This document shows positions 1,837-11,014 of a stretch of 12,475 bases of DNA, in pieces. Numbering within the stretch: position 1 is the stretch's first letter; every line of letters starts with the position of its first letter. Both the position numbers and the translations under genes were made by a program. This stretch comes from a virus. Lineage: Duplodnaviria > Heunggongvirae > Uroviricota > Caudoviricetes. The notes below the pieces were generated by a model. That model saw nothing but the letters and a program-made list of their open reading frames with translations. It ran no database searches and was not told the origin of the DNA. The stretch lies in the IMG/VR virus record IMGVR_UViG_2923286960_000002, one strand, 5' to 3'.

Positions 1837-3129
1837 ATGAATACTGGATATTCTCCCGAACAAGGGCGGGGCTTCGTTCGTCCTGAAAAACAGAATCTGC
1901 AAAATTTTGCCGAAAGTATTCCGGTTATTTCCGGCCTTACTGGCGGGAGTGAAACCAATATTGTTAACGCCAGAGCGTTGCAGATGTTTGATGATAAAAA
2001 GGGAGTAAATTTAACTTACACCCCTGACGGCAATCAGAATATGAGCATTATCTCTGAGTCAGGTTTCTACAAACTAATAAAAACAAAAAGCGCCCCGTTG
2101 CCGGAGCGCCTTTGTGAACAATTAACCTACTGCGCAAAAAATGAATCTGAGCAGTGGGATTATATCAACCATGTGGAGAAGCGCCACAATTGCCGAATAA
2201 CGGGCAAAACAAAGGCCACCCGCTACGGTGGCCCCTCGACACAAGCTACACGTTATCCCCAACGCATGAGCATTGCCAACAATGCCACATTTGCGGCTGG
2301 TGGGCAATGCAATCAGTCTGGTTCAGTTCGTTGCCATACCTGCAATGAGCGCTTTTCCCTGTACTCTTTAAGGAATTGCTCAAGGGCAAAAGCACATGGC
2401 GCGAATCTTTCTGATTCATGCTCTATCTTTCTGCGCCGTCTTTTCCGTGCCGGTGATAATGTTTTGGTCAATTCTTTATCGGTCATTGTGTTGTCCTGCA
2501 TAGCAATGCGCCGTAATACCTTACACCACGGCGCTGATGGTGATTACTCTGGTTCTTTGGCCTTGCGGCGCTGGCGATATTCAACTTCTCGTTTTAATGC
2601 CGCAGTAACAAATTGCCCCGTACTTTCGCCAGGCATTTTTACCGCCTCAACATTGTTCATAACTTCATGCGGAACCCTTGCCGCAACGGTTTGTGATTTT
2701 GCGTTTACTGCTTTTGTCGCCATGTGGTGTACCCCTCATAAAAAACAAATGCAGTATGCAGGAAAAAAAATAAGTGTTCAACACTTGACGTGTTTAACAC
2801 CTGGGTTTAAATTGGTGTTCAACACCTTGTTGGCGCAAGGTGCAGAAACGACGAAACCCGGCAGTGCGCTAACACTAACCGGGCTTCTAACCACCAACGA
2901 TAGCGAAAGTATCGAGGTAGCTATGCGAAATCATACCACACACCCGCAAGGGCGGGACTCGCACAACCTGAATAAATACATCTGGCGTTTTATCGCCCTG
3001 AGCACGGCACAACCGCGCGTGATTACCATTGAGGCCACCAGCGAACAGGAAGCACGCCAGCAATCTCCGGCTGGCTGCGTGATGGTATTCGCTGCCCGTA
3101 TTCGTCAGGAGGTGTGCCATGTGCAATAA
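1837..3129 (+). CDS. Bro-N-like domain ORF (antirepressor-like N-terminus); 3' two-thirds of the frame doubtful, possibly degraded
   Basis: N-terminal ~110 aa resemble the Bro-N domain (NLQNF..., DDKKGV..TPDGNQNMSIISESGFYKLIKTKSAP). From about aa 120 the frame is Cys/Ser/Thr/Arg-rich and poor in Asp/Glu/Lys, and it is antisense to a well-supported RHH gene. No clear SD before the ATG. Confidence 0.4.
   Translation: MNTGYSPEQGRGFVRPEKQNLQNFAESIPVISGLTGGSETNIVNARALQMFDDKKGVNLTYTPDGNQNMSIISESGFYKLIKTKSAPLPERLCEQLTYCAKNESEQWDYINHVEKRHNCRITGKTKATRYGGPSTQATRYPQRMSIANNATFAAGGQCNQSGSVRCHTCNERFSLYSLRNCSRAKAHGANLSDSCSIFLRRLFRAGDNVLVNSLSVIVLSCIAMRRNTLHHGADGDYSGSLALRRWRYSTSRFNAAVTNCPVLSPGIFTASTLFITSCGTLAATVCDFAFTAFVAMWCTPHKKQMQYAGKKISVQHLTCLTPGFKLVFNTLLAQGAETTKPGSALTLTGLLTTNDSESIEVAMRNHTTHPQGRDSHNLNKYIWRFIALSTAQPRVITIEATSEQEARQQSPAGCVMVFAARIRQEVCHVQ
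2313..2501 (-). CDS. Hypothetical small basic protein, second gene of the leftward RHH operon
   Basis: 62 aa, highly charged (KRRRRK), 42 nt downstream of the RHH gene on the same strand; no recognisable fold by eye. Confidence 0.3.
   Translation of the reverse strand: MQDNTMTDKELTKTLSPARKRRRRKIEHESERFAPCAFALEQFLKEYREKRSLQVWQRTEPD
2544..2723 (-). CDS. Ribbon-helix-helix (Arc/CopG/MetJ-like) DNA-binding protein, putative island repressor
   Basis: 59 aa ORF below the track's length cutoff: MATKAVNAKSQTVAARVPHEVMNNVEAVKMPGESTGQFVTAALKREVEYRQRRKAKEPE. Beta-strand/helix/G-x-S-T helix pattern of RHH proteins; GAGGGG SD ~9 nt upstream of ATG; three palindromic operators immediately upstream. Confidence 0.55.
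   Translation of the reverse strand: MATKAVNAKSQTVAARVPHEVMNNVEAVKMPGESTGQFVTAALKREVEYRQRRKAKEPE
2753..2826. promoter_or_regulatory. Divergent promoter/operator switch with three GTGTT-N-AACAC palindromes
   Basis: O1 2774-2784 gtgttcaacac, O2 2790-2800 gtgtttaacac, O3 2815-2825 gtgttcaacac. Rightward promoter TTGACG (2785-2790), 17 nt spacer, TAAATT (2808-2813). Leftward promoter TTGAAC (complement of 2776-2781), 17 nt, CATACT (complement of 2753-2758). O1 overlaps the leftward -35, O2 lies in the rightward spacer, O3 just after the rightward -10. Confidence 0.55.
2923..3129 (+). CDS. Hypothetical 68 aa protein; alternative first gene of the rightward operon (same frame as the 3' end of the 1837 ORF)
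   Basis: ATG at 2923 preceded by GAGGT; lies ~100 nt downstream of the rightward promoter; its stop overlaps the next start (ATGTGCAATAA). Confidence 0.3.
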   Translation: MRNHTTHPQGRDSHNLNKYIWRFIALSTAQPRVITIEATSEQEARQQSPAGCVMVFAARIRQEVCHVQ

Positions 3130-3815: not shown

Positions 3816-4115
3816 ATGAAACTTAAATATTCTGGCTTAACTGCCAGTGGCAACACTCACCCTAAATTTACGCGCGGTGATATTTACCGCGACCAGTACG
3901 GCGGCACGGTAATGATTAAGGGCGTGGAAGAACGGCGTGTAACCTACCGCCGTGAAGGTTACGAATATGATTGCGTGATGCCTGTTTATCAGTTCCGGCG
4001 TGATTTTTCTCTGGTACAGACCGCGCCGCATAACGTGCCCACCAGCAACGCCAGGGCACGGGCAAACATCCAGAAGCTGAAAACCATGATTAACGGATTC
4101 AGGGGTAAAAAATGA
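3816..4115 (+). CDS. Hypothetical protein (99 aa), possibly a conserved enterobacterial prophage small protein
   Basis: Motif GDIYRDQYGGTVMIKGVEERRVTYRREGYEYDC; stop overlaps the start of the replication gene (ATGA at 4112-4115). Confidence 0.5.
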   Translation: MKLKYSGLTASGNTHPKFTRGDIYRDQYGGTVMIKGVEERRVTYRREGYEYDCVMPVYQFRRDFSLVQTAPHNVPTSNARARANIQKLKTMINGFRGKK

Positions 4116-5866
4116 AACTGGCACCGAACGTAAAACAGCAGTCACGCGGCATAAAACACAAAGGAACAGAAGTCATTATTTTTGCGGGTAGTGATGCCTG
4201 GGCACACGCGAAACAATGGCAGGAACATGATGCGCGTATGGCCGGAGATAATGAGCCTCCTGTGTGGCTTGGGGAGCAGCAGTTATCAGAACTGGATAAG
4301 CTGCAAATTGTGCCGGAAGGCAGAAAATCCGTGCGCATATTCAGGGCCGGATATCTTGCGCCAGTAATGATAAAGGCGATTGGCCAGAAGCTGGCGGCGG
4401 CAGGCGTACAGGATGCAAATTTTTACCCTGATGGTATGCACGGTCAGAAGGTGGAGAACTGGCGCGAATATCTGGCCCGTGAGCGCCAGAATCTTTCTGA
4501 TGGTCTGGTCATTGAGCTTCCGGTAAAGCAAAAGGCGCAACTTTCGCAGATGGCGGACAGTGAGCGCGCGCAGCTGCTTGCCGATCGCTTTGATGGCGTT
4601 TGCGTACATCCTGAAAGTGAAATCGTTCACGTATGGCGCGGCGGGGTATGGTGTCCGGTCAGCACAATGGAGCTTAGCCGCGAAATGGTGGCGATCTATT
4701 CAGAGCACAGGGCCACTTTCAGCAAGCGCGTAATCAATAACGCCGTGGAAGCGTTAAAAGTTATTGCCGAACCAATGGGCGAGCCGTCCGGCGATTTGCT
4801 GCCGTTCGCCAATGGTGCGCTTGACCTGAAAACGGGGGAATTTTCCCCGCACACGCCGGAGAACTGGATCACCACGCACAACGGCATTGAGTACACGCCA
4901 CCAGCACCCGGGGAGAACATCCGCGATAACGCGCCAAACTTTCATAAATGGCTTGAGCACGCAGCCGGAAAAGACCCGCGCAAGATGATGCGTATATGTG
5001 CCGCGCTGTACATGATTATGGCGAACCGGTACGACTGGCAGATGTTTATTGAGGCCACCGGAGACGGCGGGAGCGGTAAAAGTACATTCACACACATAGC
5101 CAGCCTTCTGGCAGGGAAACAGAACACGGTAAGCGCTGAAATGACATCGCTTGATGATGCTGGTGGACGTGCGCAGGTTGTCGGGAGTCGTCTTATCGTC
5201 CTGGCTGACCAGCCGAAATATACAGGCGAAGGAACGGGCATCAAGAAAATCACAGGCGGCGACCCCGTGGAAGTTAACCCGAAATATGAAAAGCGTTTCA
5301 CGGCGGTAATCAGGGCGGTGGTGCTGGCGACCAACAACAACCCGATGATATTCACCGAACGGGCCGGAGGTGTGGCACGTCGTCGCGTGATTTTCCGTTT
5401 CGACAATATCGTCAGTGAGGCCGACAAAGACAGGGAGCTACCGGAAAAGATTGCGGCTGAAATCCCTGTGATTATCCGCCGATTACTGGCGAACTTTTCC
5501 GCCCCTGAAAAGGCACGGGCTTTACTCATTGAACAGCGTGACGGTGATGAAGCACTGGCGATAAAGCAGCAAACGGATCCGGTTATTGAGTTTTGCCAGT
5601 TCCTGAATTTTCTGGAGGAAGCGCGCGGCCTGATGATGGGGGGCGGTGGCGATTCAGTGAAGTACACGACCAGGAACAGCCTTTACCGCGTCTATCTGGC
5701 GTTTATGGCATACGCAGGCAGGAGCAAACCGCTAAACGTAAATGACTTTGGCAAGGCTATGAAGCCAGCCGCGAAAGTTTACGGACATGAATATATTACG
5801 CGGAAAGTTAAGGGAGTAACGCAGACTAACGCAATAACAACAGACGATTGCGACGCGTTTTTATAA
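4112..5866 (+). CDS. Replication initiator/helicase, P4 alpha C-terminal-like (D5_N + SF3 helicase); PICI Pri-Rep-like
   Basis: 584 aa; Walker A GDGGSGKST near aa 315 followed by a hydrophobic strand ending LIVLAD; overall resemblance to the phage/plasmid primase P4-family C-terminal domain. No TOPRIM or AEP primase motif recognised by eye in the N-terminal 300 aa. Confidence 0.88.
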   Translation: MKLAPNVKQQSRGIKHKGTEVIIFAGSDAWAHAKQWQEHDARMAGDNEPPVWLGEQQLSELDKLQIVPEGRKSVRIFRAGYLAPVMIKAIGQKLAAAGVQDANFYPDGMHGQKVENWREYLARERQNLSDGLVIELPVKQKAQLSQMADSERAQLLADRFDGVCVHPESEIVHVWRGGVWCPVSTMELSREMVAIYSEHRATFSKRVINNAVEALKVIAEPMGEPSGDLLPFANGALDLKTGEFSPHTPENWITTHNGIEYTPPAPGENIRDNAPNFHKWLEHAAGKDPRKMMRICAALYMIMANRYDWQMFIEATGDGGSGKSTFTHIASLLAGKQNTVSAEMTSLDDAGGRAQVVGSRLIVLADQPKYTGEGTGIKKITGGDPVEVNPKYEKRFTAVIRAVVLATNNNPMIFTERAGGVARRRVIFRFDNIVSEADKDRELPEKIAAEIPVIIRRLLANFSAPEKARALLIEQRDGDEALAIKQQTDPVIEFCQFLNFLEEARGLMMGGGGDSVKYTTRNSLYRVYLAFMAYAGRSKPLNVNDFGKAMKPAAKVYGHEYITRKVKGVTQTNAITTDDCDAFL

Positions 5867-6154: not shown

Positions 6155-6412
6155 ATGCGCACATCAGGAAAACTTAATAATCAGAAGAAGCAGCATAACC
6201 GCGCCATTGACCTTACAGAGCACTGGCTGAGAGTGGCGATAAAAATCATCGACCGCAACACGGGGGAAGGATACGCGAAAGCACATCCCGACCTGATAAG
6301 CGCATTCATGACCACGGCGGCGGCAAACTTTGCCACGCTGACAGAACGGGAGATTGCCGAAGCGGAACAGGTAACAACCATCAACGTTAAAACCGGAGAG
6401 GTGGAATCATGA
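6155..6412 (+). CDS. Hypothetical protein (85 aa)
   Basis: Strong SD GAGGGGG upstream; stop overlaps the SSB-like start (ATGA at 6409-6412). Confidence 0.5.
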   Translation: MRTSGKLNNQKKQHNRAIDLTEHWLRVAIKIIDRNTGEGYAKAHPDLISAFMTTAAANFATLTEREIAEAEQVTTINVKTGEVES

Positions 6413-6831
6413 CAGCACAGATAGCAGCTTACGGGCGGCTGGTGGACGACCCGCAGGTAAAACAGACCAGCAAGGGCACACCAATGACGCTGGCACGTAT
6501 GGCGGTCCCCCTTCCGTGCAGCCAGGCAGATGACGGAACGGCGACGATGTGGTTATCCGTCCTGGCATTTGGCAGACAGGCCGAAGCACTGGAAAGGCAC
6601 CGCAAGGGTGAACTCCTGAGCGTGGCGGGTAACATGCAGATCAGCCAGTGGACTGGGCAGAACTGAGAAACGCGGCAGGGCTGGCAGGTTATCGCAGACA
6701 GTGTAATCAGTGCGCGAACGGCGCGACTGGGCGGCAAAAAAGGTCAACAGGGCCAGGCTACTGACGCGCTGAACAGGGCAAAACAACAGGCGGGGAATGA
6801 TGATCCGTACGGGGATAACATACCGTTTTAA
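6409..6831 (+). pseudogene. ssb: SSB-like OB-fold protein interrupted by a single in-frame TGA (6664-6666); nonsense mutation, readthrough or sequencing error
   Basis: N-terminal 85 aa align to the SSB OB fold (YGRLVDDPQVKQTSKG...WLSVLAFGRQAEALERHRKGELLSVAGNMQISQWTGQN). The same frame continues after the TGA for 54 codons and ends in the SSB acidic tip ...DDPYGDNIPF. The TGA sits where SSB has a conserved Gly codon. Confidence 0.7.
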
Positions 6832-6846
6832 GCGACGAGTGACAGA

Positions 6847-6869
6847 AGCCGGAGCAATCCGGCTTTTTT
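6847..6869 (+). terminator. Rho-independent terminator
   Basis: Stem agccgga/tccggct, loop gcaa, followed by a T run. Confidence 0.6.
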
Positions 6870-6917
6870 ACGGGTCCTCCTGGCGGGGTGGGCCTGAACA
6901 CGGGGCGGGAGGCGCGG
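6869..6917 (+). other. Degenerate cos-like sequence, paralogous to the cos at 9311-9360
   Basis: tacgggtcctcctgg...acggggcgggaggcgcgg parallels tacgggtcctttccgg...acggggcggcgacctcgcgg, but the cohesive-end core is altered. Confidence 0.45.
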
Positions 6918-7044
6918 AAAAAAGCGCATTTTTGTGATTTTATCGTCATCATCATCATGAGCGTAATTTATTGTTTTTAATTGTTTTGATGCAAAAAAGA
7001 TGATGGTTATGGTTAATTTTTGTTCGACATCTTTGCAGGCAGAT

Positions 7045-7085
7045 AAAAAAGCCCGATAAGGTCAGAGGTGGCTTATCGGGCTTTT
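7045..7085. terminator. Bidirectional hairpin terminator
   Basis: Perfect 10-bp stem gcccgataag/cttatcgggc with 11-nt loop, A run upstream and T run downstream. Confidence 0.5.
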
Positions 7086-7161
7086 GCATATGAGGCTTTT
7101 TGGTGCACTGACACACATGATCGGGATAATCATTTCATAATTTGCAACACAACTCAATATC

Positions 7162-7211
7162 ATTGCACAAAATGCAATCATGATTATAATCAGAGCTGGA
7201 TGAACATCCAG
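7162..7211 (+). promoter_or_regulatory. Head-operon promoter with overlapping palindromes
   Basis: -35 TTGCAC (7163-7168), 16 nt spacer, perfect -10 TATAAT (7185-7190); palindrome ATTGCAcaaaaTGCAAT (7162-7178) over the -35 and perfect 16-bp palindrome CTGGATGAACATCCAG (7196-7211) near +1. Confidence 0.5.
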
Positions 7212-7246
7212 TTATGATTTTTTAAGTCGAAGAGGAATTTCTTACT

Positions 7247-7453
7247 ATGGCTGAAGAGAAAAAAGGCGGTGTTTCGGTGTACATAAGCCCCGAAATCGTG
7301 GAGGTGCTCAAGCAGCGCCACAAAAAAAACTATGAGGCTGGCGTGGCGGCTGGACTGGATCCGCTGATGACGCCGGAGCCGTCGATAGGTTCACTTGTAC
7401 GCTCTTATTTACTTGCGGCGCTTGGGATGCATAAAAATTATGGGGGTGAATAA
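7247..7453 (+). CDS. Hypothetical protein (68 aa), first gene of the head operon
   Basis: SD GAGGA upstream; stop overlaps the capsid gene start (TAATG); no recognisable family by eye. Confidence 0.5.
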   Translation: MAEEKKGGVSVYISPEIVEVLKQRHKKNYEAGVAAGLDPLMTPEPSIGSLVRSYLLAALGMHKNYGGE

Positions 7454-8508
7454 TGGCAGGAAAAGCAACGGCACTTAACACTAACCAGCTTTTCATGTAC
7501 CTGAATCGCGGGGATATTGCGGATTTTAAATTCAGCCCTCTGTTTACCACGCTGTTTTTCCCGAACGTGGCGACATTCAGCACGCAAAACATCATGCTGG
7601 ATACCCTGGACATTGAAGAAGTCACCATGTCGGCGTTTTGTTCGCCTATGGTGGGTAGCCAGGTTCAGCGCGATAAAGGGTACGAAACCAGCACGATTAA
7701 ACCTGGCTACATGAAGCCAAAGCACGAAATCGATCCAACGAAAACCATCATGCGCATGGCTGGAGAAGATCCGGCACAGCTTAACGACCCTACCTATCGC
7801 CGTATGCGCCTGATTACTGGCAATATGCGCCGCCAGATAAACGCCATAAAAGCGCGCGTGGAATGGCTGGCGGTAAATGCGGTAACGACCGGAAAAAACA
7901 TCATTGAGGGCGAAGGCATAGAGCGCTATGAAATCGACTGGAAGATCCCAAGTAAAAATATCGCCAGACAGGGACATGGCAAAAAGTGGTCAGAGGCAGA
8001 TAAGGAAACACACGATCCAATCTATGACATTGAGCTATACGCAGATCAGGCAGGTTGCCCCGCAAACGTCATGATTATGGGCGTTGATGTATGGCGCATG
8101 TTACGCAGCTTTAAAAAATTCCGTGAACTGTACGATCTCTCCCGTGGTTCAGAATCCGCCGCAGAGCTGGCATGTAAAAACCTGGGCGAAGTGGTGAGCT
8201 TTAAAGGCTATCTTGGTGATCTGGCCCTTATCGTCTATTCCGGCAAATACACTGACAGCGACGGCACAGAAAAATATTTCCTTGAGCCTGATTTGCTTGT
8301 CCTGGGCAACACCAACAATAAAGGGCTGGTGGCCTATGGTGCGATTATGGATCAGGACGCAGTAAGAACGGGGGCAACGCAAAACATGTACTACCCGAAA
8401 AACTGGATTGAGGACGGAGATCCGGCGATTGAGTACGTGCAGACGCACAGCGCACCGCAGCCGGTTCCGGCAGATATTCGCAAATTTGTTACTGTCAAAA
8501 TTGCTTAA
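7453..8508 (+). CDS. Major capsid protein, lambda gpE family
   Basis: 351 aa; conserved blocks shared with lambda gpE as recalled: FKFSPLF..LFF, PGYMKPKHE, EDPAQLNDPTYRR, WSEADKETHDP, VSFKGYLGD.A.IVYSG.Y, LVLGNT, YPKNW...GDPA, SAP. Confidence 0.92.
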   Translation: MAGKATALNTNQLFMYLNRGDIADFKFSPLFTTLFFPNVATFSTQNIMLDTLDIEEVTMSAFCSPMVGSQVQRDKGYETSTIKPGYMKPKHEIDPTKTIMRMAGEDPAQLNDPTYRRMRLITGNMRRQINAIKARVEWLAVNAVTTGKNIIEGEGIERYEIDWKIPSKNIARQGHGKKWSEADKETHDPIYDIELYADQAGCPANVMIMGVDVWRMLRSFKKFRELYDLSRGSESAAELACKNLGEVVSFKGYLGDLALIVYSGKYTDSDGTEKYFLEPDLLVLGNTNNKGLVAYGAIMDQDAVRTGATQNMYYPKNWIEDGDPAIEYVQTHSAPQPVPADIRKFVTVKIA

Positions 8509-8519
8509 CGGGGGATTCT

Positions 8520-8855
8520 ATGGACACTCCATACATTGAGTTATTTGCAGGCAGTCAGCAGGTCGCCACGACGCTGGTACATTTTGCCGCTGATGCTGGC
8601 GTTATTCAGGAATTTACCCCGCTGATGCTGGCGGACAATGGCGAGTTTAAGCCGTGGGATGGTCAGGAATCTGGCAAGGCTGTTTATCTGACTTCGTATC
8701 CTGTGGACACGTCAAAGCAGAAATCAGCACAGTGTTACAAGACGGGGATATTCAATATTGCCGCCGTTAACTGGCCTGAGAGCGTCGACACCGATGCGAA
8801 AAAATGCGCCGCCTTTGCGGGTTCCGGCGTATCCGTTCAGCCGCTGGCCCGATAA
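8520..8855 (+). CDS. Head decoration protein, lambda gpD-like
   Basis: 111 aa; TPLMLADNGEFKPWDG..., YKTGIFNIAAVNWPESVDTDAKKCAAFAGSGVSV parallels lambda gpD TPLMLDTSSRKLVAWDG..., YKSGTF.YEDVLWPEA..DETKKRTAFAGTAISIV. Confidence 0.85.
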   Translation: MDTPYIELFAGSQQVATTLVHFAADAGVIQEFTPLMLADNGEFKPWDGQESGKAVYLTSYPVDTSKQKSAQCYKTGIFNIAAVNWPESVDTDAKKCAAFAGSGVSVQPLAR

Positions 8856-8867
8856 GCAGGGGGAACG

Positions 8868-9281
8868 ATGGCAACGAATGAAAGCATCATGACGCTACCG
8901 CTGGCGAGTAAATTTAAAGCCGAAGCGCGGGCAATGGCTGACAGAGGTTTATCAACCTATGAGGCCGTATATCAACTAAACAAACTGGAAGAGCAGGACA
9001 AGCCGCGCGCTGATGCGATTATGGCGCTTCATGAGCATAAAGACTATCAGCCGCTGTTACGTGCAATGGCAAACGTGCCATGTATTAGCGTCGATAATGC
9101 TCGTGAAATCCTGAACATGACCATAGAGCAGGAGCGCCCAAAGGTTGCACCAGAGCTTACCGCAGCCTTTGAAAACTTTATGGACATGCACAGCCCGCAA
9201 GCCGTATCAGCTGGCATGGCATACGATGGCAGAAACCAGGGCGATGACGGCGACATCGATCGCATACTGAAAACCATCTGA
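8868..9281 (+). CDS. Hypothetical protein (137 aa), last gene of the head operon
   Basis: Good SD and protein-like composition; position analogous to lambda FI but no similarity recognised by eye. Confidence 0.5.
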   Translation: MATNESIMTLPLASKFKAEARAMADRGLSTYEAVYQLNKLEEQDKPRADAIMALHEHKDYQPLLRAMANVPCISVDNAREILNMTIEQERPKVAPELTAAFENFMDMHSPQAVSAGMAYDGRNQGDDGDIDRILKTI

Positions 9282-9286
9282 GACAA

Positions 9287-9311
9287 GGCCGGAGAAATCC
9301 GGCTTTTTTTT
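9287..9311 (+). terminator. Rho-independent terminator
   Basis: Stem gccgga/tccggc with gaaa loop followed by T8; near-identical to the hairpin at 6847-6869. Confidence 0.6.
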
Positions 9312-9444: not shown

Positions 9445-9885
9445 ATGATTGATAAAGCTTGTTTTGTAAGTCAGCAGGAAATAGCTGAACATTTCAAGGT
9501 TAACAGAACCACTATTCGCGCATGGACCAAACAGGGGATGCCGTATCTTAATGCGGATCGCGGAAAGTCTGGCGGTTATCACATCGGGCATACATTGCTT
9601 TGGTCTTCAGGTAAAAGCCGTCTTGAGGCCATCAGATATCACGTAGAAACCAGTGTGCTGGAAAAAATTATGTTTGCCAGGCTGCTTTCATCTGAGCGTG
9701 ACGAGTACTCCAGTGAAGAAACAGAACATAGATTTGATGAAGGTTTACAGATTTACGGCTACTCACCGGAAGAAGTGAGCAAAGCGCGAAATAAAATGGC
9801 CGGCTTTCTGGCTGGGTGGCGTCATGCCGTAAGCGTTCGCCGTGCCAGCATGGAACAATCAGTCGTTACAGAACAGCAAAGTTAA
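9445..9885 (+). CDS. Nu1-like HTH protein: small terminase subunit or TerS-mimicking packaging redirector (Rpp-like)
   Basis: 146 aa; N-terminus FVSQQEIAEHFKVNRTTIRAWTKQGMPYL..GKSGGYHIGHTLLW resembles the lambda Nu1 winged-HTH DNA-binding domain (QLADIFGASIRTIQNWQEQGMPVL...); SD AAGGT upstream. Confidence 0.75.
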   Translation: MIDKACFVSQQEIAEHFKVNRTTIRAWTKQGMPYLNADRGKSGGYHIGHTLLWSSGKSRLEAIRYHVETSVLEKIMFARLLSSERDEYSSEETEHRFDEGLQIYGYSPEEVSKARNKMAGFLAGWRHAVSVRRASMEQSVVTEQQS

Positions 9886-10011: not shown

Positions 10012-10079
10012 TCTTTATTTTTACTTAGTTATCAAATGGATATGACAAACAATTAAACAACAACCTCCCTCTAAAAAAG

Positions 10080-10150
10080 CTCATAAATAGCGAAAAACCG
10101 CGAGGTCGCCGCCCCGTAACGGGCCATAATTCCAGGAAGGACCCGACGAC
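10080..10150 (-). other. Second lambda-type cos site (cos2), inverted relative to cos1
   Basis: Reverse complement reads cgggtccttcctgg...ggcccgttacg GGGCGGCGACCT CGCGGTTTTTCGCTATTTATGAG (12-mer at complement of 10103-10114), near-identical to cos1 over ~45 bp. Confidence 0.8.
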
Positions 10151-10178: not shown

Positions 10179-10460
10179 ATGACAGAAGCCGAAATACTGC
10201 GATTAATCCGCCGCGTTGCCGGAATCAGCCAGCAGGCCGACGAACAGACCACGCAGCCGGACAGCGTGACCGCCGAAAATTATGTTCGTGTGGTTGCTGA
10301 GATGATTCGCCGTAATGGTATCCAGCTTAATGATGTGGATATGCGCAACATACGGATCCGCGTTCTTGAAATGCTGGCCTACAATCGCCGCGTGGCACTG
10401 TATCGGGAAACGGAGAAAATTACGTACCACTGGAAGAAGCCGGAGCGGTTGCGGCGGTAA
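10179..10460 (+). CDS. Hypothetical protein (93 aa)
   Basis: ATG preceded by GGGGG SD; charged, helical-looking composition; no family recognised by eye. Confidence 0.45.
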   Translation: MTEAEILRLIRRVAGISQQADEQTTQPDSVTAENYVRVVAEMIRRNGIQLNDVDMRNIRIRVLEMLAYNRRVALYRETEKITYHWKKPERLRR

Positions 10461-10633: not shown

Positions 10634-10798
10634 CCCCCATTGGGGGAGGCTGGGCGGCCTGCTGTGGGCTTTTCCACCATTGGTGGAAAGGCGCACATCT
10701 GGATCATCATTACGGTGATCAAGGGTATGTAAAACCCACCAGCCTGATTGACATTTAACCGGAAAAAAGCCAGGTAGCCCCATTATGGGGATCCCCAT
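10634..10798. repeat. Cluster of short GC-rich palindromes
   Basis: CCCCCATTGGGGG (10634-10646), TTCCACCATTGGTGGAA (10672-10688), CCCCATTATGGGG (10778-10790), ATGGGGATCCCCAT (10785-10798). Confidence 0.4.
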
Positions 10799-11014
10799 AT
10801 CGACATTAACGCCCCTCATGAATTGGCGCGCTTCCCCCTGGAAAGATGACCCGCCTGTATATTTCTTGTGTCTATTTGTTCCACGTTGTTTCATACAGTG
10901 CAACGATCGGTGTAGTTAATGGTGTAGTCAATTTGCGATTTTTAGCACTTTTTGCAGTGCGAATCATTTAATTAAATCAATGGCTTGCCTTGATGTAGTG
11001 ATAAAAGGGCATAT

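Follow-up and report, generated by a model that had tools for sequence, protein, structure and literature searches.

Background

Operon I of the SaPIs is reportedly controlled by LexA, a result ascribed to Ubeda and coworkers in 2007. In ExPEC, LexA directly represses prophage endolysin promoters. The described element closest to the DNA analyzed in this study is EcCICFT073, a phage-inducible chromosomal island (PICI) in which c1499 encodes the capsid protein, c1500 the decoration protein, and c1503 rppA, and which carries two cos sites. In published work, AlpA is the helper-induced activator of this island, alpA does not respond to SOS alone, and the deletion of c1499 or c1500 produced no phenotype. 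The EcCICFT073 literature describes the AlpA switch but no regulation of c1498-c1501, and our search of the literature on LexA control of E. coli PICI genes, and on the box sequences reported below, found no publication. Searches for ChIP or gel-shift results on the predicted LexA site, and for 5'-end mapping of its promoter, likewise gave none.

Results

The window is an allele of an EcCICFT073-type island

The window, that is, the whole 12,475-nt stretch of DNA analyzed in this study, is an allele of an EcCICFT073-type PICI at the roxA/phoQ site. It carries int, alpA, a primase-helicase gene, cos sites, and a specific att site in an island of approximately 10-11 kb, in which no tail or lysis genes were found. 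The flanking genes, roxA and phoQ, are those of c1483-c1505 in CFT073. The window and EcCICFT073 share this chromosomal site, the presence of two cos sites, and the order of int, alpA, primase, SSB, the c1498-c1501 homologues, and an Rpp-like gene; in the window allele, one cos site is phage-like right up to 7034. Genome-contig scans queried with the capsid protein and then with its alignment returned no match. The island features are as follows:

1-1230: integrase
1596-1784: AlpA-like regulator
4112-5866: D5_N primase-helicase
6409-6666: SSB-like gene, truncated to 85 aa
6866-7034, plus strand: cos site, homologous to cos of Stx/VT1-Sakai-type lambdoid phages
7046-7085, plus strand: strong hairpin followed by a T-run (-25.6 kcal/mol, z -4.7)
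7247-7453, plus strand: 68-aa ORF, c1498 homologue, gene 1 of the operon, possible RHH DNA-binding protein
7453-8508, plus strand: lambda-E-like major capsid protein, c1499 homologue (PF03864, E 4.6e-50)
8520-8855, plus strand: lambda-D-like head decoration protein, c1500 homologue (PF02924, E 1.3e-17)
8868-9281, plus strand: 137-aa ORF, c1501 homologue (phrog_1999; phrog_53 positions 495-567 of 583)
9285-9306, plus strand: terminator-like hairpin with T-run, end of the four-gene operon
9445-9885: TerS-like HTH protein, probably Rpp

By its profile matches, the 137-aa ORF resembles the Nu3-like part at the C-terminus of head maturation proteases. The SSB-like gene encodes 127-145 aa in relatives, and its NCTC86 equivalent is a RefSeq pseudogene with an internal stop. 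A 430-aa ORF at 1837-3129 exhibited short anti-repressor (Ant/BRO-like) matches near its N-terminus and a strong match of residues 339-429 to phage "transcriptional repressor" families; the NCTC86 annotation divides its equivalent into several genes, small or partial. Directly 3' of the integrase stop, at 1255-1320, short direct repeats of the GAACAA/CAACG type (gacaacgtgaaacaacgagacacaacgacgaacaacaaggaacaaaatggaacaacg) are also kept in relatives; they may represent arm-type sites or binding sites for AlpA/Xis. Near the phoQ-proximal island end, at 10784-10800, a 7-N2-7 inverted repeat, ccATTATGGGGATCCCCATATcg, encloses a 12-bp palindromic core of the GGGGATCCCCAT type; it may act as a terminator or be close to the att site.

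The region upstream of the head promoter contains a cos site and a hairpin

The stretch 6950-7034 was 81-86% identical by BLAST to a stretch located approximately 70 bp upstream of phage terS. Visual inspection extended the similarity to phage cos back to approximately 6866, with a GGGCGGG-type cosN region included and an end at 7034. A second cos site lies at 10060-10140 on the minus strand, opposite to the first, between the Rpp-like gene and the ORF at 10179-10460; it contains the lambda cosN sequence GGGCGGCGACCT within ACGGGGCGGCGACCTCGCGGTTTTTCGCTATTTATGA.

The hairpin at 7046-7085 is a probable terminator that shields the head promoter from upstream transcription; Salmonella islands and a third island lineage have a hairpin of another sequence at its place. 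The segment between SSB and this hairpin (approximately 6670-7040) is exchanged among islands (L008, L009, and L092-L094), its equivalents containing a PerC-family regulator gene in some islands and a phage-like cos in others, including this window. The database protein P0023 is a hybrid of PerC and the 68-aa ORF.

A probable dedicated promoter precedes the head operon

The first-pass annotation had placed a head-operon promoter at 7162-7211, with a perfect TATAAT and with ATTGCA-N5-TGCAAT at the -35. Direct reading found both motifs exactly, the former at 7185-7190 and the latter as ATTGCA at 7162-7167 and TGCAAT at 7173-7178. The elements of the region are as follows:

7132-7148, plus strand: O1, a degenerate copy of the -35 dyad (ATTTCAtaattTGCAAC, 2 mismatches), 30 bp upstream of that dyad
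7162-7178, plus strand: -35 dyad (IR1/O2), ATTGCA-N5-TGCAAT, half-sites 11 bp apart, overlapping the -35
7163-7168, plus strand: -35 hexamer TTGCAC, 3/6 to consensus
7185-7190, plus strand: -10 hexamer TATAAT, 6/6 to consensus, inside the palindrome TGATTATAATCA
7189-7223, plus strand: extended quasi-palindrome with T-run, ATCAGAGCTGGAT-GAAC-ATCCAGTTATGAT-TTTTT, its 5' arm starting inside the -10
7194-7213, no strand assigned: predicted LexA (SOS) box AGCTGGATGAACATCCAGTT, with a CTG-N10-CAG 16-mer at 7196-7211, over the predicted start

The 16-bp spacer between TTGCAC and TATAAT conforms to sigma-70 spacing, and the combination TTG-N19-TATAAT occurs only once in the window, where 0.14 is expected. 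The promoter had also been described as strong, which was not established, as the -35 matches TTGACA at only 3/6 positions and the -10 has no TGn extension. Because of these two properties, the pair was not listed by a consensus promoter scan with a threshold of 4/6 per hexamer; the weak -35 also suggests that the promoter may be activator-dependent. Transcription is predicted to start at approximately 7196-7198. The -10 lies inside a 12-bp palindrome (7181-7192) that the earlier reading had not remarked and that is extended to 14 bp, ATGATTATAATCAT, in most relatives. The -10 itself is unchanged in the E. coli sequences but for one TGTAAT variant, and it reads TAAAAT in the third lineage.

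That the promoter is dedicated to the head operon is supported by the retention of the -35/-10 pair in three island lineages, by its position 3' of the strong hairpin, and by expression in CFT073, where c1498-c1501 change as one block apart from c1497 and c1503. In CFT073 RNA-seq data for a shift from 23 to 37 C, the log2 fold changes of c1498-c1501 were 2.24, 2.05, 1.45, and 1.17, whereas the neighbors c1497 (0.24) and c1503 (rppA; 0.33) did not rise (PMC12890032, supplementary table). This block matches the unit bounded by the head promoter and the hairpin at 9285-9306. In the same data, alpA was 2.26 log2 units higher at 37 C than at 23 C, the replication genes between alpA and c1498 did not rise, and sulA was unchanged while c1498-c1501 rose (PMC12890032). 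This rise without a sulA response means that the head promoter receives at least one non-SOS input. The joint rise of alpA and c1498-c1501 suggests a shared temperature-linked non-SOS input, for example relief of H-NS-type silencing or AlpA acting at the head promoter.

The leader at 7214-7225, ATGATTTTTTAA, contains a three-codon mini-ORF (Met-Ile-Phe-stop), the ATG of which is in frame with the small ORF in Salmonella islands. The ATGAT in this leader doubles as the outer 3' arm of the extended palindrome, and the mini-ORF is probably incidental. A Q-antitermination or attenuator arrangement starting from a weaker upstream TTCATA-18-TATCAT was considered and set aside, because its -10 shows little conservation and no similarity to phage late regions was found.

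The promoter elements are conserved across three island lineages

Of 5426 complete E. coli genomes, 601 (approximately 11%) contained the 6950-7460 region. The loci compared comprised 8 from E. coli, 80 from IMG/VR, 40 from metagenomes, and 7 found through homologues of the 68-aa ORF, and they fell into an E. coli type, a Salmonella type, and a third type. In the Salmonella type, the small ORF is 53-55% and the capsid protein 67% identical, and the hairpin and leader sequences are unrelated; in the third type, the capsid protein is 63-70% identical. Three elements are common to all lineages, namely TTTCAT(A/G)ATTT(G/A)CAAC, (A/G)TTGC-N7-GCAA(T/C), and TA(T/A)AAT inside ATGATT..AATCAT. Their spacing is equal across the lineages, whereas the upstream hairpin, leader, and flanks differ.

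The palindromes by themselves are not significant, and the weight rests on their conservation and position. The window contains three 6-N5-6 repeats (3.4 expected), two 7-N2-7 repeats (0.73 expected), and five 12-bp palindromes (3.4 expected), and three dyad centers fell within 50 bp in 7 of 60 shuffles. The 16-bp palindrome claimed for 7196-7211, CTGGATGAACATCCAG, is present but is not perfect: its reverse complement is CTGGATGTTCATCCAG, and it consists of a 7-bp inverted repeat around a non-symmetric AA center (7+2+7). Across relatives, CTGGAT-N4-ATCCAG is the sole part of this start-site dyad that is kept.

The -35 dyad is the most deeply conserved operator-like element of the region. Its core, TTGC-N7-GCAA, is kept in nearly all variants; the dyad reads GTTGCG-N5-TGCAAC in Salmonella and is a perfect ATTGCAAAAAATGCAAT in the third lineage. 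The O1 copy, which had escaped the first-pass annotation, sits in a block, TCATTTCATAATTTGCAA, that is invariant among 52 distinct E. coli sequences, and it is recognizable in the Salmonella islands and the third lineage.

As a tentative candidate for the protein binding the -35 dyad, a reasonable guess is the operon's own 68-aa product, which would act as an autoregulatory RHH protein. In this product, a conserved strand-like segment at the N-terminus precedes Pro-x-Glu and a helix, and the AF2 model of the protein (pLDDT 73) exhibits an extended N-terminus and two helices. A PDB sequence search and a fold search with the 68-aa protein returned no significant match; the best Foldseek match, the TraM DNA-binding domain, had an E of 0.73, which is not significant. 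Against Pfam, homologues of the protein gave weak matches to BrnA_antitoxin (4 of 16 members, E 0.017) and RHH_1 (3 of 16, E 0.15).

AlpA was also considered as the binder of the -35 dyad. The joint rise of alpA and c1498-c1501 at 37 C in CFT073 is in its favor, but AlpA is disfavored by the lack of a dyad copy near alpA and by the spread of the two regions, the head-promoter module occurring in 601 genomes and this alpA region in 162. Sigma-54, CRP, Fur, the MarA box, IHF, and lambda CII (TTGC-N6-TTGC) were compared with the dyads by eye through their consensus sequences, and each misfitted in spacing or core bases. We rejected the possibility that an Rpp-TerS complex uses the -35 dyad and O1 as cosB "R" sites, as the phage-homologous cos stops at 7034; it is also countered by the O157-type islands L006 and L010, which have the promoter module without cos upstream.

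The start-site dyad matches the LexA box

E. coli SOS boxes share the core CTG-N10-CAG. We scored the window with a symmetrized LexA matrix built from 18 published E. coli boxes (table in PMC3009722). The results revealed that 7194-7213 is the top match in the window, at 18.6 bits, compared with 18.45 bits for ruvA and with 6.5-27.4 bits for the known boxes (n = 18, leave-one-out); CTGGATGAACATCCAG, as a 16-bp CTG-N10-CAG dyad with an A/T-rich center, thus scores within the range of the proven boxes. Our own analogue of the heterology index was 8.1-8.7 for the dyad and 0.3-9.3 for the known boxes. The nominal per-position p of the match is 2.8e-7, with 0.0034 such matches expected per window, but because a symmetric matrix counts the halves of any palindrome of the right geometry twice, the fair chance level is nearer 1e-3 than 3e-7. 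The predicted box begins 6 bp 3' of the conserved TATAAT and overlaps the predicted start.

Across 37 distinct promoter sequences, neither CTG nor CAG varies, and the natural variants of the site score 18.6-21.5 bits. The variants CTGGATAAACATCCAG, CTGGATGAAAATCCAG, and CTGGATG(AA/TT)CATACAG reach 20.0-21.5 bits; in the CATACAG variant, the palindrome is broken, yet the site is closer to the LexA consensus ACAG. The Salmonella islands have the box CTGGATGAAAATCCAG (20.0 bits) at the same place, where it is the top match of each locus, the next best being at most 8.8 bits. In nearly all related loci, the dyad pattern occurs once, at a fixed distance from the capsid gene. No LexA box was found in the third island lineage, in which the remaining promoter is kept; LexA control is therefore not essential or universal in this family.

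A second LexA-like 20-mer, TACTGTTTTTTTATACACTG, lies between int and alpA at 1359-1378 (17.9 bits) and is probably no LexA box, its right half reading CAC here and CAT in four relatives and never CAG. This 20-mer is part of a conserved block, ACTGKTTTTTTRTACAYTGGCGAATCA.

A longer palindrome encloses the start-site dyad

A 30-bp palindrome next to a T-run, ATCATAACTGGAT-GAAC-ATCCAGTTATGAT, which the earlier reading had also not remarked, has the start-site dyad at its core in most relatives. The 13-bp arms are perfect in many relatives and are directly followed by TTTTTT, whereas the window allele has two mismatches in these arms, with GAG where relatives have TAA. The element at 7189-7223 may form an RNA hairpin or serve as an insulating terminator. 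For the inner hairpin, the folding energy is -9.4 to -9.8 kcal/mol (z approximately -3.5), and the inner stem alone leaves a gap of 6 nt before the T-run.

Among relatives, the 7193/7214 pair occurs as T-A, C-G, G-C, and T-G and is unpaired in nearly half of the sequences; in one allele, a change from TTA to TCC opposite GGA regains a perfect palindrome. Overall, 93.8% of cells pair, compared with approximately 30% when the partner is slid. The covariation is nevertheless modest to weak, with 2 of 13 pairs altered on both sides and the observed measures reached in 10-15 of 500 shuffles. A 1-bp insertion variant leaves the hairpin intact and abolishes the LexA spacing; the upstream hairpin of that island is also damaged. 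Both the box and the hairpin are missing from the third lineage, in which the T-run and Shine-Dalgarno region are nevertheless kept. Because the T-run occurs there without a hairpin, it is not terminator-specific; it is a feature of the 5' UTR and no proof of a terminator.

Discussion

These elements, their conservation and position, and the matrix score are best explained by a head-operon regulatory region at 7132-7213 that would comprise a sigma-70 promoter, a LexA operator over the start, and a second operator system at and upstream of the -35. We give an even chance of being correct to this reading, in which LexA binding and repression, the position of the start, and the second regulator's identity are inferred. 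In undamaged cells, LexA on the start site would hold the head operon down. On DNA damage, active RecA would cause lambdoid helper repressors to cleave themselves and LexA to be cleaved as well, and production of the capsid, decoration, and scaffold-like proteins would then coincide with helper induction. A second input would come from the -35 dyad together with the degenerate copy located 30 bp upstream of it, an operator system more deeply conserved than the LexA box.

The earlier suggestion of tight repression or activator dependence is thus upheld by conservation as far as operator-type control is concerned, but the start-site dyad is better read as a site for host LexA than for an island or helper factor. 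The suggested tie to helper infection is replaced by another link: on the LexA reading, expression would follow the SOS signal by which helper prophages are induced, rather than infection as such.

Counting against a pure LexA reading, the longer palindrome around the box and the T-run beside it are left unexplained by LexA, and some compensatory change has occurred in this palindrome. In the main rival explanation, the start-site dyad would act as RNA, its likeness to a LexA box being incidental, either as a 5'-terminal stem-loop that stabilizes the head mRNA or, in the extended form (7189-7218 with the T-run), as an intrinsic terminator of incoming upstream transcripts. Such a terminator could not act on transcripts of the overlapping promoter, because its 5' arm would be untranscribed. 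The stability of the inner hairpin, the perfect 13-bp arms with TTTTTT in many relatives, the changes at 7193/7214 with the TTA to TCC restoration and 93.8% pairing, and the insertion variant that retains the hairpin at the expense of LexA spacing are what this explanation has to offer. However, the covariation is of a degree that shuffled sequences reach, nearly half of the sequences are unpaired at 7193/7214, and template switching can yield multi-base "corrections" of quasi-palindromes without selection. A C-to-A variant places an uncompensated G-A mismatch in mid-stem and lowers the fold to -5.9 kcal/mol; a T-run 6 nt past the inner stem is non-canonical, and the T-run and Shine-Dalgarno region persist in the hairpin-less third lineage. 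Moreover, a strong hairpin already stands 100 bp upstream, and the island of the insertion variant has damage in that hairpin as well. We therefore consider an RNA role in place of LexA binding unlikely, although the LexA and RNA-hairpin readings are not mutually exclusive.

Two further explanations dispense with LexA. The dyad could be the operator of another repressor, from the island or a helper phage, that binds CTGGAT/ATCCAG, as the first-pass annotation had suggested; it is conserved at the start site, and the island encodes small DNA-binding candidates in AlpA, the 68-aa ORF, and the TerS-like HTH protein. Island and phage repressors usually have several operators, whereas the window contains no second copy of the dyad, and the variants drift toward the LexA consensus rather than hold strict symmetry. 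The site is also common to E. coli and Salmonella islands with differing regulatory and replication modules, which points to a shared host factor, and a dedicated non-LexA repressor appears quite improbable to us. The promoter could, alternatively, be constitutive or silenced only by nucleoid proteins, the palindromes being AT-rich by-products without a dedicated binder. Each palindrome type occurs at approximately chance frequency in the window, the CFT073 operon is expressed and thermoregulated without deliberate induction, and the c1499 and c1500 deletions had no phenotype, all of which would fit. Nevertheless, the three dyads and O1 are conserved amid varying surroundings in lineages at 53-70% protein identity, and the LexA score is far above that of other sites in every locus examined; we regard the absence of any binder as very improbable.

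On the reading with a LexA operator over the start, a broader proposal can be made, which we hold tentatively and at somewhat less than even chance. In the cos-type PICIs of E. coli and Salmonella, the capsid/decoration/scaffold operon may be wired directly to LexA, apart from the helper-induced AlpA switch, an arrangement that would have arisen in Gram-negative hosts by convergence with SaPI operon I. Together with an island-specific second operator, possibly served by the operon's own small protein, the result would be a late promoter with two inputs, set within a terminator that stops only transcription arriving from upstream. If this is true, a simple and testable rule would state when the c1498-c1501 proteins are made, and Gram-negative satellites, like SaPIs, would read the host SOS state directly, beyond the helper cue alone. 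A LexA site at this position would bear on the antibiotic-induced (SOS) spread of EcCICFT073-type islands, and the deeply conserved -35 dyad marks a second regulator worth finding.

Comparison with known systems

Among E. coli LexA boxes, those of ruvAB and cho (ydjQ) have similarly unusual arms, CTGGAT...(A/T)(A/C)CCAG, with G for T at position 4. In both ruvA (CTGGATATCTATCCAG) and cho (CTGGATAGATAACCAG), the box has the CTGG...CCAG arms of the island dyad. The center of the island dyad, ATGAACAT, is nearly identical to that of recA, ATGAGCAT, and differs from those of ruvA and cho; unlike these two boxes, the dyad belongs to a mobile island and has a longer palindrome around it.

The -35 dyad resembles the RHH operators of Arc and Mnt (phage P22 immI) in having two 6-bp half-sites 11 bp apart center to center that overlap a promoter, and, by our own reading, the small gene adjoining it has the strand-Pro-x-Glu-helix pattern. 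The two differ on the side of the protein, the RHH fold of the 68-aa product being tentative, with Pfam matches of E 0.017-0.15 in a minority of homologues and a Foldseek match of E 0.73.

The lambda PR'-qut-tR' region also combines a late-gene promoter with a hairpin and T-run close behind it, here in an element that depends on lambdoid phages. However, the window promoter has no sequence similarity to any phage late-promoter region, the 5' arm of its hairpin overlaps the -10 and is hence absent from the promoter's own transcript, and the known helpers have differing Q types. A Q model of this kind was considered and is not favored.

A functional parallel is SaPI operon I, in which a phage satellite likewise has a packaging or capsid-morphogenesis operon with its own promoter and a host LexA site, the latter being predicted in the window. 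In both, expression would track the SOS signal and not the main induction switch of the satellite. The two differ in that the host of the window island is Gram-negative, the box is of the E. coli type CTG-N10-CAG, and the genes, which are lambda E-, D-, and Nu3-like, are unrelated.
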